Below are positions 46,267 to 57,634 of a stretch of DNA of 64,000 nt, piece by piece (within the stretch, counting starts at the first letter, position 1; every line of letters starts with the position of its first letter). The DNA lies in NCBI GenBank assembly GCA_039811145.1, contig JBDHYB010000015.1:1350-65349 (forward strand). The letters run 5' to 3'. Both the position numbers and the translations under genes were made by a program. This stretch comes from Chitinophagales bacterium (GTDB lineage: Bacteria > Bacteroidota > Bacteroidia > Chitinophagales > LD1). Under the pieces are notes generated by a model. It was given only the letters and a program-made list of their open reading frames with translations. It had not been told where the DNA came from and did no database searches.

Positions 46267-47499
46267 ATGAAGCCAAAGCTGTCCTTTCTTTTAGGCTCCG
46301 GATTCTCTGTTCCAGATCATTTGCCTCCTGTGGCCGAATTAAATGAGCGGTTGCGAAAGATAGACGAAAGCGAAATCTTAATTCATTCCAGTCAAACAGC
46401 TATCTTTTTAAACGGTTCCGAAGACCCGAACAGACACGTCCATTGGGATGACCGATTATTCCTTCAACGATTTCTTGAGTTTTATACTTCGGAAGTTTTA
46501 AAAGGTGAAAGCAACTTTCACTACGAAACTTTCTACGATTACTATTCAGGATATTTAAATGCCGATGAAAATAAGGAAGCAATAGAAGCTTTTTATCAAA
46601 AATTTATTGAGGAAAACCTGAAAGACACCGACCATGTGAAAAACGCATTTAATTATGTTTCCGCATTTAACCGAACCTTTAATCAGTTAATCGCCCAACA
46701 ATTACAAAAGCGACTCTATGTAAACGATGTTAGCTACAGTAACTATCCACCCTATGATAACTTCATAAATTTCTTATCAACCACTCTAGAAACGTACGAT
46801 ATAAAAGTTCATACACTCAATCACGATTTGCTTTTTGATTTTCTTGGTGGCAAAACAAGCCTATGGCAAAGCTTTGCTGATGGCTTTGATTTACGCGGTT
46901 CTCGATACTATGGCGAAGTTAGCATGGACTTTAATCATGGCAATGAACGAGTTTATAAGACGTATGTAGTAAAACTGCAACGATTTAATAATAGGTTCGA
47001 CAAACCATTATGCCTGTTTAAGCTGCACGGTAGTGTCAATAATCTTTTAGTCTATACGCCGCAAAGAGAATATATACGACTAAAGCATGATTACGGGGTA
47101 AGTCGGTTTAAAATAGAAACGGATGACGGCACTTTTGAACGATTGCACGATGAGGTAGCACCCGATTTCTTAAGTGGCACCACTAACAAGCAACGATCTT
47201 ATACCCGCGACCCATACTATATTAACTTGTTTAAACATTTTGAAACTAACCTTACCGAATCAGAATATCTAATCGTTATTGGGTATAGTTTTCAAGATCC
47301 TGGTATCAATTATTACGTAGAGAATTGTTTCTTACAACAGGGCAAGAAGATGATTGTAATTGATGTGCGCCGACCTACAGCGAATATATTGGAGAAGCAT
47401 GATTTTACTTTTGTTAAAAAGAGTATTATTGATGTTTCCTACGATGAATTTCTTCGCTTGCTTTCAATTGAAGTTCCGAAGCGCACGTTTGTTTACTAA
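46267..47499 (+). CDS. Standalone SIR2-like (SIR2_2) domain protein, putative NADase/defence
   Basis: FLLGSGFS...LP, HTLNHDLL, FKLHGSVN, IVIGYSFQDPGIN motifs; AT-rich. Confidence 0.85.
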   Translation: MKPKLSFLLGSGFSVPDHLPPVAELNERLRKIDESEILIHSSQTAIFLNGSEDPNRHVHWDDRLFLQRFLEFYTSEVLKGESNFHYETFYDYYSGYLNADENKEAIEAFYQKFIEENLKDTDHVKNAFNYVSAFNRTFNQLIAQQLQKRLYVNDVSYSNYPPYDNFINFLSTTLETYDIKVHTLNHDLLFDFLGGKTSLWQSFADGFDLRGSRYYGEVSMDFNHGNERVYKTYVVKLQRFNNRFDKPLCLFKLHGSVNNLLVYTPQREYIRLKHDYGVSRFKIETDDGTFERLHDEVAPDFLSGTTNKQRSYTRDPYYINLFKHFETNLTESEYLIVIGYSFQDPGINYYVENCFLQQGKKMIVIDVRRPTANILEKHDFTFVKKSIIDVSYDEFLRLLSIEVPKRTFVY

Positions 47500-54230: not shown

Positions 54231-54642
54231 TTACCACAAAGGCACACAGAACACAAAGAATACAACGATAGCTTATTAAGTTGCTCGGCATGTTCAATAA
54301 CATGCTTTCAGCAAGTGGGCTAATATCCTCCGCCGGCGGAGGTGGCCCGCAAAGCGGGTCGGAGGTGGATGTGCTTACGTGGCACGAGCGGACGCTCGCA
54401 GTAGTAGAGCCCCCCCCTGTCACTCTGAGCTTGTCGAAGACTGACCCAATCAGCGCCCTATTTGTCACCCTTCGACTAGCTCAGGATGACAGTTTAGTCA
54501 TAATACGTCATTCCGTCCCGATAGCTATCGACATGACCCGGAATCTCAATTCAATAACACCGTCATTGCGAGCGCAGCGAAGCAATCTTCAACTTTATCA
54601 TCAATAACATACCTAGCACGAGCGGACGCTGGCGTTAGTGGG
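54231..54642. repeat. Dense mosaic of several palindromic repeat families
   Basis: ACCACAAAGGCACACAGAACACAAAG; CCTCCGCCGGCGGAGG; GGCACGAGCGGACGCTCGC (54381, 54615); GTCACTCTGAGCTTGTCGAAG/CTTCGACTAGCTCAGGATGAC; GTCATTCCG...GGAATCT; GTCATTGCGAGCG...GCAATCT. Confidence 0.85.
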
Positions 54643-54777
54643 ATTTTAAAAACCGCATTTATTACACCTAACAGCGCAATAAACGGTAGATAAAGAAAGT
54701 TCTGCGCCATGCCACCGCGCTTTACTTCAATTTTTTCAGGTAAATTTTGGTATGACCCCTTCAGTAGTAGTTTCCAT
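54639..54777 (-). pseudogene. Truncated 5' fragment homologous to the gene at 57173-57634
   Basis: 54639-54749 encodes QNLPEKIEVKRGGMAQNFLYLPFIALLGVINAVFKIP (34/37 aa identical to 57512-57622); cut by a REP; upstream ATG at 54777 is out of frame by one base (GGGG run). Confidence 0.85.
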
Positions 54778-54912: not shown

Positions 54913-55704
54913 ATGAGCGTTGCAAAACTTTATACCGACGAATTGAAAAGAAATTTCAAGATCTTATTCGCCAATTGGGAACCCGGCACACCGCTGGAGT
55001 TAGGTGTTTACGGCCTTTTAAGTAACAACATTTTTGTTCCACTAGGAAACATCAAGCAATTGGGTGTAAATTTTGACGTAGTTACCGACCTTGTAAAAGA
55101 TGAAAAAGAATTTAAATCTGAAGGCGGCGTTGAAGTAAAATTCAACCCCAAAGCATCGGTAACGGTTACCCCAGGCGTTTCGGTTAACGCCAACCTGGAA
55201 ATTAAGTTTACCAGGGGAAAGTCGATATTTTTTCACGCAGCTGAATGCAGTACCAACAGAATTGCCGATAAAGTAAAGCTGGGCAAGGATCTGAAAAACC
55301 TTTTGAAAAAAGGCGATTGGAAGAAAAAGTATGTAGTGGTAACTGACCTCGTGGATTCAGGCAATACTATTATCGCTGTTTCCGATAGTAAAGATGCGAA
55401 CATAACTTTTCAAGCCTCAAGCCCTACCATTGAAAACATTAACCTGGCAGACGCTTCAATAGACCTGACGGTTACAACCCGTAAGGACATTGGCTATAAG
55501 GTGGAAGCGGTTAAAGGCCTTCAGATACTAATGGGTTTGTGCAAGTTTAAAAATCCCTTCCCGCTTTTAGGCGATGGCTCTATCATGCCTATAAAAATGG
55601 CCTCATCAAAAGAGCTTTCAACCTTAATTGAAGATGCGCCTGAAATAAAAACAGAACAGAGCCCGGACGATTTATACTTTGGCCAATTAGGCTACGGCGA
55701 ATAA
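54913..55704 (+). CDS. Probable bacterial gasdermin-like pore-forming protein
   Basis: 263 aa, no signal peptide. N-terminal helix then P...L.LG motif and LG.I..L; two amphipathic beta-hairpin regions (aa ~64-100, ~160-200); YVVVTDLV strand; acidic C-terminal tail ending DDLYFGQL. Order matches the bGSDM architecture (by eye, no search). Confidence 0.72.
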   Translation: MSVAKLYTDELKRNFKILFANWEPGTPLELGVYGLLSNNIFVPLGNIKQLGVNFDVVTDLVKDEKEFKSEGGVEVKFNPKASVTVTPGVSVNANLEIKFTRGKSIFFHAAECSTNRIADKVKLGKDLKNLLKKGDWKKKYVVVTDLVDSGNTIIAVSDSKDANITFQASSPTIENINLADASIDLTVTTRKDIGYKVEAVKGLQILMGLCKFKNPFPLLGDGSIMPIKMASSKELSTLIEDAPEIKTEQSPDDLYFGQLGYGE

Positions 55705-55721: not shown

Positions 55722-56228
55722 ATGATAAAAATAGAGATAAAAGAAATTTCGGGTTATGCCGATAAGAATCTGGAAACGCTAAACGAAAGTTTAAAGCTTG
55801 TTGAAAAGGTGATTAACACCGAGGCCTTTAAGGATAAGGTATTGAACTTTACAATGCCCAACGGCAAGGTGACGTTTTTTTATAGGCCGTGGCATAAAAA
55901 ATACAGTAACGCGGAGGTATTGGACCTGATATATAGTGCCAGCGAAGAATACGATGGCGGTCAAAAGGGTGTAATTGATTTATACCTGCATTTAGAGCCG
56001 GGAGGCGATGGAAGCGTTGTTGGGTATGGAAACGAGGGCGATAAATGGATAAACACCTATGAAACACCCTTTGCAGGTATGTCCCGCCCTGAAATAGCGG
56101 GCCACATTTTTCATGAGTGGTTGCATAAAATTGGTTTTGTGCATGATTTTTATGATGTCCCGAAACGCAGATACTCTGTTCCCTATGCAGTAGGAGAAAT
56201 TATGGAGCAACTTGCGGGACACAGCTAA
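55722..56228 (+). CDS. Small cytoplasmic zincin metalloprotease
   Basis: HIFHEWLHKIGFVHD = HEXXHxxGxxH; VVGYG edge strand; SVPYAVG; no signal peptide; 17 nt after the gasdermin-like gene. Confidence 0.85.
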   Translation: MIKIEIKEISGYADKNLETLNESLKLVEKVINTEAFKDKVLNFTMPNGKVTFFYRPWHKKYSNAEVLDLIYSASEEYDGGQKGVIDLYLHLEPGGDGSVVGYGNEGDKWINTYETPFAGMSRPEIAGHIFHEWLHKIGFVHDFYDVPKRRYSVPYAVGEIMEQLAGHS

Positions 56229-56336
56229 AAAACAATTTTGACACGGTGCGATTGCATAAACCTGCAATCACACTATATTTCTTTTTATTTTTTAATAAAT
56301 TTAAATTATAATTTATTTTTACCGAAAACCCATAAT

Positions 56337-57172: not shown

Positions 57173-57634
57173 TCACCTATACGCCCTCCAAAAACCATTC
57201 AGCGAAGTGCAAAGTTGGTGTGGGTCTGCATTTAAAAAGCTGCCCCAAAAACCGGCTTCCCGGCCGTCTTTGGCCTCAATCACTAGGTCAAAAGAAGTGG
57301 AAGTGGTATTGTTACCTGAGTTAAACGAAGTGGTTCTTTCTATTCGTATATCCTTTACTTCGTTCCACGGCACAAGGCCCAGGCTGTTTGTCCAAATGCC
57401 TTCTTTAGTGGCGCGTATCAAAACTTTGGTAAACACAAGGGCCGTTAGCCTGTTTATGCTCATTACAGCCGCAATGGCAAACACTGCTAATACAAGGTAG
57501 CTGTACGGTGCCGGTATTTTAAACACTGCATTTATTATGCCCAACAGCACAATAAACGGTAAGTAAAGGAAGTACTGCGCCATACCGCCGCGTTTTACTT
57601 CAATTTTTTCAGGTAAGTTTTGTGCTGCATCCAT
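57173..57634 (-). CDS. Hypothetical membrane protein (two TM plus PH-like domain)
   Basis: Two TM helices followed by ATKEGI....GLVPWNEVKDI. Confidence 0.7.
   Translation of the reverse strand: MDAAQNLPEKIEVKRGGMAQYFLYLPFIVLLGIINAVFKIPAPYSYLVLAVFAIAAVMSINRLTALVFTKVLIRATKEGIWTNSLGLVPWNEVKDIRIERTTSFNSGNNTTSTSFDLVIEAKDGREAGFWGSFLNADPHQLCTSLNGFWRAYR

Follow-up and report, generated by a model that had tools for sequence, protein, structure and literature searches.

The stretch of DNA analyzed here, referred to as the window, covers 64,000 nucleotides (nt) of contig JBDHYB010000015.1 from a member of the Chitinophagales (assembly GCA_039811145.1). It carries a gene for a protein of 263 amino acids (aa), P0001, whose modelled structure is very probably of the gasdermin type, followed by genes for a zinc metallopeptidase and a VanY-type peptidoglycan peptidase (Table 1). 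A preliminary description, made from the sequence alone, had concentrated on P0001 and its C-terminal tail; it did not mention the metallopeptidase and the cell-wall peptidase, by which the locus stands out more. The P0001 open reading frame (ORF) consists of 263 codons and a stop codon and is open throughout; the minus strand is full of stops. A word-indexed search with P0001 returned 70 proteins at E ≤ 1e-3, the query included, all of them unnamed or annotated as "hypothetical" and most from metagenome bins of Bacteroidota. An exhaustive profile search with the family retrieved 2402 cluster representatives (50% identity) at E ≤ 1e-3, 1719 at 1e-10 and 582 at 1e-30. Because many homologues were found in both searches, P0001 is counted as a real gene and not a chance ORF.

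Fold and family of P0001

The model of P0001 that AlphaFold2 (AF2) built on an alignment has a mean predicted local distance difference test score (pLDDT) of 87.1 and a predicted template-modelling score (pTM) of 0.84. When it was compared with the PDB using Foldseek, the 7 matches at E ≤ 1e-3 and the top 13 matches overall were all gasdermins or RCD-1, including bacterial, mammalian and Trichoplax proteins as well as fungal RCD-1. Ranks 1–14 in a VIA scan of 48161 chains were likewise all gasdermins or RCD-1, with 8sl0 as the best match (Z 10.9, root-mean-square deviation 3.9 over 152 residues); the inactive Runella protein 7n52 scored Z 7.9 in an alignment reaching model residue 263. The gasdermin core that the preliminary description had read from the sequence, and for which it had proposed a structure model as the check, is present in the model. 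P0001 resembles the known bacterial gasdermin (bGSDM) structures from Runella, Bradyrhizobium and Vitiosangium (7n52, 7n50, 7n51, 8sl0) in predicted fold and in size; like them it lacks a large C-terminal domain, and its C-terminal peptide is predicted to lie back on the core. Two finer points of the same description also stand: the final core strand of the model, aa 203–213, spans LQILMGLCKF, and the translation contains cysteines at positions 112 and 210 only. W22, P24, G31, G34 and W136 are invariant in the core of the family, and C112 is near-invariant.

P0001 belongs to a gasdermin clade of very large size that escapes current models. In the ESM Atlas it lies, at a score of 0.98, beside clusters with 13% and 33% Bact_GSDM (PF26164) members, and the PADLOC bGSDM model gave weak colinear matches in 12 of 63 distant family representatives (E 2.7e-5 to 9e-3). 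Because the protein falls outside the curated bGSDM models as built, we place it at the level of the superfamily only: P0001 is a gasdermin superfamily member by fold and context, outside the curated bGSDM sequence families. An NCBIfam search with P0001 returned noise only, PHROGs gave nothing, and 50,697 phage records held no match. Neither phmmer with P0001 nor a 42-sequence profile found anything in the PDB at E ≤ 10, and a plasmid search produced one match, at 27% identity. Fusions occur within the family: P0225 (919 aa) combines a gasdermin-like domain with a caspase C14 domain, and P0150 and P0179 (564 and 577 aa) combine one with a class-3 lipase domain (Lipase_3).

C-terminal tail and cysteines

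Beyond the last core strand, P0001 has a tail of 51 residues (aa 213–263) that contains 5 Pro, 9 Asp/Glu and 4 Lys, carries a net charge of about −5 and ends in DDLYFGQLGYGE. The preliminary description had spoken of a Pro/acidic tail of about 50 aa; its length and composition agree with these counts, and "Pro/acidic" is a fair label for what is a mild bias. By blocks of ten residues, pLDDT along the tail is 73, 53, 72, 80, 93 and 72, so that a poorly defined linker at aa 221–230 (53) contrasts with a well-defined segment at aa 251–260 (93). DSSP assigned aa 255–258 of the model to a strand, with a pLDDT of 93. Since a strand of four residues needs a partner and the tail has no other, it probably pairs with the core.

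For the conservation counts we collected 216 relatives, dropped 16 fragments or fusions and kept the 200 of 225–330 aa. The median tail length in this set is 47 aa. F256 is the best-conserved tail residue (175/200), and L254 is kept in 108 relatives and is otherwise mostly replaced by hydrophobic residues. The earlier proposal that LYF forms a docking motif gains support from the modelled strand and from this conservation. The ending TE(E/Q)SP-DLYFGQL is common to P0001 and a relative (L009) whose adjoining protease is papain-like; because the same ending occurs with a different protease, the LYFGQL motif is likely to serve docking rather than protease recognition. A cleavage site in aa ~215–250 is plausible, given the low-confidence linker in the model. 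Studied bGSDMs have a peptide of ~20 aa that runs across the core with Phe residues in contact, and the Runella protein is cut after L247 (10.1101/2021.06.07.447441); the predicted arrangement in P0001 is analogous, with a tail that, at about 50 aa, has about twice the length of the peptide described in that report.

C112 is kept in 174 of the 200 relatives and C210 in 78. A Cys within the first 10 residues, at about position 6–8, occurs in 16 relatives and is absent in 184. The preliminary description had singled out the missing N-terminal Cys, which is indeed absent but is not distinctive: among the 36 canonical PF26164 proteins collected, not one carries a Cys within its first 10 residues, and a Gillisia bGSDM was also reported without one (10.1101/2021.06.07.447441). 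Its further step to a "non-palmitoylated clade" goes beyond what can be read from sequence, because the near-invariant C112 could carry a modification. In contrast to studied bGSDMs with a palmitoylated N-terminal Cys (C3/C4), P0001 has the internal C112 instead. Judged from the alignment, tail length, C112 and F256 are traits of the family and not peculiar to the P0001 copy. As a reference for the canonical clade, L032:1390-3662 of genome G087 was used; here a Bact_GSDM gene encoding 264 aa without an N-terminal Cys adjoins a large ORF that is cut off by the end of the locus and spans at least 485 aa.

Genes and repeats around P0001 and its relatives

Table 1. Features of the P0001 locus (positions in the window)
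Feature	Position	Strand	Basis or remarks
Gasdermin-fold protein P0001, 263 aa	54913..55704	+	ORF, AF2 model, fold matches, family
P0001 core, aa 1–213	54913..55551	+	N-terminal helix, ANWEPG motif (aa 20–25), beta-rich body
P0001 tail, aa 214–263	55552..55701	+	Conserved F216, flexible linker aa 221–230, helix 233–241, terminal strand
Proposed docking strand, L254-Y-F-G-Q-L259	55672..55689	+	DSSP strand and conservation
Leaderless zinc metallopeptidase, 168 aa, candidate activator	55722..56228	+	Starts 17 nt after gasdermin stop
Zinc-binding motif HEWLHKIGFVH, aa 131–141	56112..56144	+	Conservation in 24 homologues
Leaderless M15/VanY-type peptidoglycan peptidase, 248 aa	56337..57083	+	ATG start; upstream TTG at 56238 gives 281 aa
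Left copy of ~115-nt direct repeat	54640..54757		5′ fragment (about codons 5–42) of membrane-protein gene, minus-strand reading
Right copy of repeat	57513..57630		Within intact membrane-protein gene (its 5′ end)
Membrane protein, 153 aa, convergent with cassette	57173..57634	−	ORF; weak NCBIfam STM3941-family match, E 0.01

On its motif and modelled fold, the 168-aa neighbour of P0001 is a zincin metallopeptidase, with an HExxH motif on a zincin fold and an apparent third zinc ligand. H131, E132, H135 and H141 are invariant among 24 homologues (HExxHxxGxxH), and G138 is near-invariant. Pfam gave no match to the protein. Its AF2 model (pLDDT 87.3) matched peptidyl-Lys metalloendopeptidase 1g12 (Z 10.6), AsaP1 2x3a (Z 10.2) and deuterolysin 1eb6 (Z 9.0) over 132–138 residues, and the other fold matches listed were essentially all zinc peptidases. 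The enzyme may belong to the aspzincins (M35) or to another zincin clan. It shares the predicted fold and the HExxH catalytic helix with aspzincins (Grifola peptidyl-Lys metalloendopeptidase, AsaP1, deuterolysin); unlike them, it appears to use the invariant His of the HExxHxxGxxH spacing as third ligand, and it has no pro-domain, signal peptide or Pfam match. This spacing is the metzincin pattern, whereas aspzincins use an Asp motif.

A crude check for hydrophobic runs, together with visual inspection, indicates a leader in about 19 of the 24 peptidase family members, most of them with a signal or lipoprotein leader, and none in the window peptidase and its two closest relatives. At a second locus (L026/L027), a leaderless homologue lies directly upstream of a gasdermin-like gene; because it is only 33% identical to the window peptidase, this adjacency is not simply inherited synteny. 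An adjacent protease gene, as in bacterial gasdermin loci, is present: it encodes a zinc peptidase here, and a C14, CHAT or papain C1 protein in relatives. Unlike the caspase-like proteases with repeat domains of bGSDM operons, the window enzyme is small and sensor-less. Prediction of a complex between the peptidase (with Zn) and tail residues 210–263 gave a score of 0.03 against a mark of 0.32 in a run without controls, and counts neither for nor against the pairing.

Genome co-occurrence was considered as support and discounted. In a class sample of 401 genomes, gasdermin-like genes occur in 6, HExxH homologues in 6 and both in 3; one of the three is the window's own genome, and in the other two (G670, G371), which are large (7.2–7.4 Mb), the two families are found on separate contigs, C14 or CHAT genes partner the gasdermin-like genes, and the HExxH copy of G371 carries a leader. 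Genome G079, from the same order as the window's genome, encodes a leaderless HExxH peptidase domain followed by a C-terminal Gln_deamidase_2 domain (L037:1501-2994; E 1.6e-23), a protease and a toxin-type effector in a single chain.

The 248-aa neighbour is, from its sequence, an M15/VanY-type peptidase. It matched Pfam VanY at 27.3–28.5 bits against a cutoff of 25, over profile positions 5–79 of 132, and it aligns with the LD-carboxypeptidases LdcB/DacB over SFHEAGRAFD (S-x-H-x-x-G-x-A-F-D), the zinc-binding H-x6-D segment; the last His ligand was identified by visual inspection alone. A PHROG endolysin family gave a weak match (E 0.0036). A comparable gene order occurs in L009, where the gasdermin-like gene comes first, followed by a papain gene and then a CHAP plus PG_binding_1 gene. 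The P0001 locus, and similarly L009, resembles phage holin-endolysin pairs in that the gene for a protein that would breach the membrane adjoins one for a wall hydrolase without an export signal; it differs from them in that the pore former would have a gasdermin fold and not be a small helical holin, and no phage genes lie around it. Endolysin-like genes have been noted near some bGSDM operons, and holin-endolysin mimicry was proposed in a 2022 essay (PMC9612521). In G371, the leader-bearing HExxH homologue is directly followed by an NlpC/P60-CHAP plus PG_binding_1 hydrolase (L059:5902-7293), which is homologous (35% identity) to the hydrolase beside the gasdermin-like/papain pair of L009.

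The direct repeat that brackets the gasdermin, peptidase and VanY genes was found by repeat search and pairwise alignment, and its copies are about 86% identical; the left copy is also the second protein match of the membrane protein in its own genome, at 87% identity. The repeat points to acquisition of the cassette as one unit through recombination, perhaps together with the membrane-protein gene. When an empty site was sought in the same-genus genome G760, which has a membrane-protein gene 63% identical, no synteny with the window flanks was found. The surrounding genes are housekeeping genes (isocitrate lyase, malate synthase, an XRE-M78 regulator, a DEAD-box helicase, an amidase and riboflavin genes), with no phage genes among them. 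Rfam returned nothing above noise around the cassette, and promoter and terminator scans did no better than on shuffled sequence. About 7 kb upstream, a 410-aa protein (46267-47499, + strand) has a weak SIR2_2 match (E 1e-5) and is possibly another defence gene. The 0.7-kb gap between helicase and cassette contains short GC-rich repeats of 30 nt with 83% identity (54376-54405 and 54610-54639), along with a palindromic GCGAGCGCAGCGAAGC-type element (54555-54590); these look like dispersed intergenic repeats.

Neighbourhoods were compared at 33 distinct loci, one of them in the window; species genomes contributed 12, metagenomes 14, a class-wide genome sample 5 and a plasmid 1. Neighbours were scanned against Pfam as selected ORFs in batches of 45, 45 and 31, so that misses are possible, and a recognizable peptidase was found within about 4 kb at 11 of the 33 loci, including the HExxH peptidase of the window and of L026/L027. 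Papain C1 proteins adjoin the gasdermin-like genes of L006, L009, L012, L019 and L029; three of these proteins (L009, L012, L029) are large and homologous to one another. In L054, the gasdermin-like gene is overlapped at its stop codon by a caspase C14 gene, with iSTAND and AAA genes following, and in L055 and L056 the gasdermin-like gene is flanked by CHAT and nSTAND1 genes. A CHAT gene lies directly upstream on an Embleya plasmid. L001 has a NACHT protein nearby, L007 has conjugation genes, and metallo-beta-lactamase (MBL)-fold and alpha/beta-hydrolase genes are neighbours in L008, L026/L027 and L006. Among bGSDMs, 43 of 50 were reported to adjoin proteases, mostly C14 or CHAT (10.1101/2021.06.07.447441). 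The neighbourhoods of P0001 relatives, with their C14/CHAT proteases and STAND NTPases, match this reported pattern, and the neighbours are typical of conflict systems.

Two further arrangements were seen among relatives. In L005:4034-11176 and L022:1987-6665 (L021 is identical), gasdermin-like genes lie inside type III CRISPR-Cas loci with RAMPs, Cmr5, Cas6 and RT-Cas1; just upstream, both loci encode a 157/158-aa protein of no known family, 53% identical between them, and the gasdermin-like tail of L021/L022 diverges past about residue 213. In L008:6835-10336 and L026:3482-6933 (L027 is the same), a conserved gene pair stands beside the gasdermin-like genes and encodes a 660–670-aa protein without a Pfam match and then an MBL-fold protein of ~485 aa. 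This pair resembles published defence modules of a protease and an MBL nuclease (PMC12642450).

Proposed mechanism and alternatives

The reading we favour, with moderate confidence, is that P0001 is a latent gasdermin pore former inhibited by its tail, that the adjacent peptidase is its likeliest activator and that the wall peptidase completes lysis. P0001 would be a cytoplasmic protein and a divergent member of the bacterial gasdermin superfamily. Its tail of about 50 aa would fold back onto the core, where the terminal LYFGQL strand would dock with F256 as its anchor and hold P0001 in a soluble, inactive state. Proteolysis within the exposed linker (aa ~215–250) would release the tail, and the freed core could then oligomerize into a large beta-barrel pore in the inner membrane and kill the cell. 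The most likely protease at this locus would be the leaderless HExxHxxGxxH enzyme, and the leaderless M15 peptidase might reach the wall through the pores and finish lysis, as an endolysin does after a holin. The parts of this scheme differ in strength. The ORF, the modelled fold, the conservation of tail and F256, the gene order and the many proteases near relatives were observed, and the autoinhibition, the pore, the identity of the cutting protease, the part of the wall enzyme and the trigger are inferred. That P0001 is a protease-released pore former is probable; its activation by the adjacent zinc peptidase is a tentative assignment, and joint action of the wall enzyme with P0001 is possible at a slightly lower level still.

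Several findings, in sequence and in gene order, weigh against this scheme. P0001 has no Pfam match at E ≤ 0.1, PF26164 included, and no PADLOC match at E ≤ 0.1, the bGSDM model PDLC02986 included; PF26164 matched none of 42 aligned family members at E ≤ 1. The comparison of the family profile with 22 canonical same-phylum bGSDMs by hhalign was non-significant (probability 2%, E 0.021, 115 colinear columns), and there is no sequence-level proof of homology. In the missing model matches and in this profile comparison P0001 differs from the known bGSDMs. The core residues that the tail contacts are likewise inferred from the model. One could therefore suppose that P0001 is no gasdermin relative and that its beta-rich fold converges on, or lies nearer to, MACPF/CDC-type pore formers: chains of cholesterol-dependent cytolysin (CDC)-like proteins and pneumolysin appear at VIA ranks 15–17 (Z 5.1–5.6), and Foldseek template-modelling (TM) scores to gasdermins are low (0.25–0.38). 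All VIA matches ranked higher are gasdermins or RCD-1, however, and low TM-scores are expected when a model of the inactive state is compared with extended pore-state chains; the weak colinear bGSDM hidden Markov model matches in distant relatives and the caspase fusion within the family also speak for gasdermin kinship, which leaves convergence very improbable. A gasdermin fold might instead serve another job, for example in a lipid- or membrane-binding protein or an exported pyroptolysin-like toxin. The fold alone shows no function, no canonical model matches, Lipase_3 fusions exist in the family, and bacterial toxins with a gasdermin fold (pyroptolysins) were reported in a 2026 preprint. 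P0001 has neither a signal peptide nor a CDC-type domain, though, its conserved and confidently modelled tail resembles the inhibitory peptide of studied bGSDMs, and its relatives repeatedly adjoin caspase, CHAT, STAND, CRISPR and papain genes; another role is, on this evidence, improbable.

The choice of activator is where gene order counts most. P0001 could be an orphan gasdermin-like effector that is switched on in trans, either by a protease encoded elsewhere or by some cue other than proteolysis, with the HExxH and VanY genes as an unrelated envelope pair. Most close relatives have no recognizable protease nearby, and adjacency of this peptidase family to a gasdermin-like gene is limited to two independent cases, the window and L026/L027, among the 33 loci. 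Homologues of the peptidase and of the VanY-like gene are both absent from all 13 species-genome loci. Conversely, leaderless HExxH homologues occur in G079, G444 and G519 without a detected gasdermin-like gene, G670 and G371 keep the two families on separate contigs, as described above, and G371 pairs its HExxH gene with a wall hydrolase away from any gasdermin-like gene. Elsewhere in the window's genome, which is 67% complete and in which CHAT was not found, three unlinked C14 proteins and one C1 protein could act in trans. The peptidase has no sensor domain by which activation could be held back. For the wall enzyme, the indication of a C-terminal domain that binds the wall is very weak (PG_binding_3, E 0.22), and the AT-rich spacer of ~108 nt that results if the ATG start is used means that the VanY gene may be transcribed alone. 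Set against the orphan view are the shared orientation of the three genes, with only 17 nt between the first two; the second adjacency, in which a homologue of 33% identity argues for more than inherited synteny; the leader typical of most family members, which both gasdermin-adjacent peptidases lack; and the direct repeat around the block, which suggests arrival as a unit. Taken together, these make the orphan view unlikely.

Beyond the favoured reading of a tail-inhibited pore former, a bolder one is doubtful: the locus would be a minimal three-gene self-lysis cassette and a mobile unit, with the gasdermin as holin, the sensor-less zinc peptidase as switch and the M15 enzyme as wall hydrolase, behind which would stand a clade that current models miss and whose members have become coupled to type III CRISPR loci and to caspases, CHAT and papain-like proteases. 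The predicted logic of P0001 resembles that of protease-effector defence modules (MBL nuclease, alpha/beta-hydrolase, Pepco, EACC1; PMC12642450), in which a tail or linker is cut at a specific site and a latent lethal effector is thereby freed. Pepco, a pre-assembled barrel of 117 aa, and EACC1 were considered as identities for P0001 and rejected on size and on their description in that source.

Bacterial gasdermins are the prokaryotic root of pyroptosis. To our knowledge, their activators known so far are caspase-like, trypsin-like or subtilisin-like; searches of the bGSDM literature found no metalloprotease activator and no papain-like pairing, although the papers' supplementary tables, outside that search, might list the clade. 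If the clade is confirmed, gasdermin-type death effectors would grow by thousands of clusters missed by defence-system finders, the inhibitory tail could be twice as long as described and work without an N-terminal lipid anchor, and metallopeptidase and papain-like activators would join the known set; the zinc peptidase, if its role is true, would be the first case of a metalloprotease-activated gasdermin. Through the relatives in type III CRISPR loci, pores of the gasdermin type would be connected with cell death triggered by CRISPR, and the cassette itself would make a small, naturally occurring test case for the holin-endolysin mimicry proposed for gasdermin operons.

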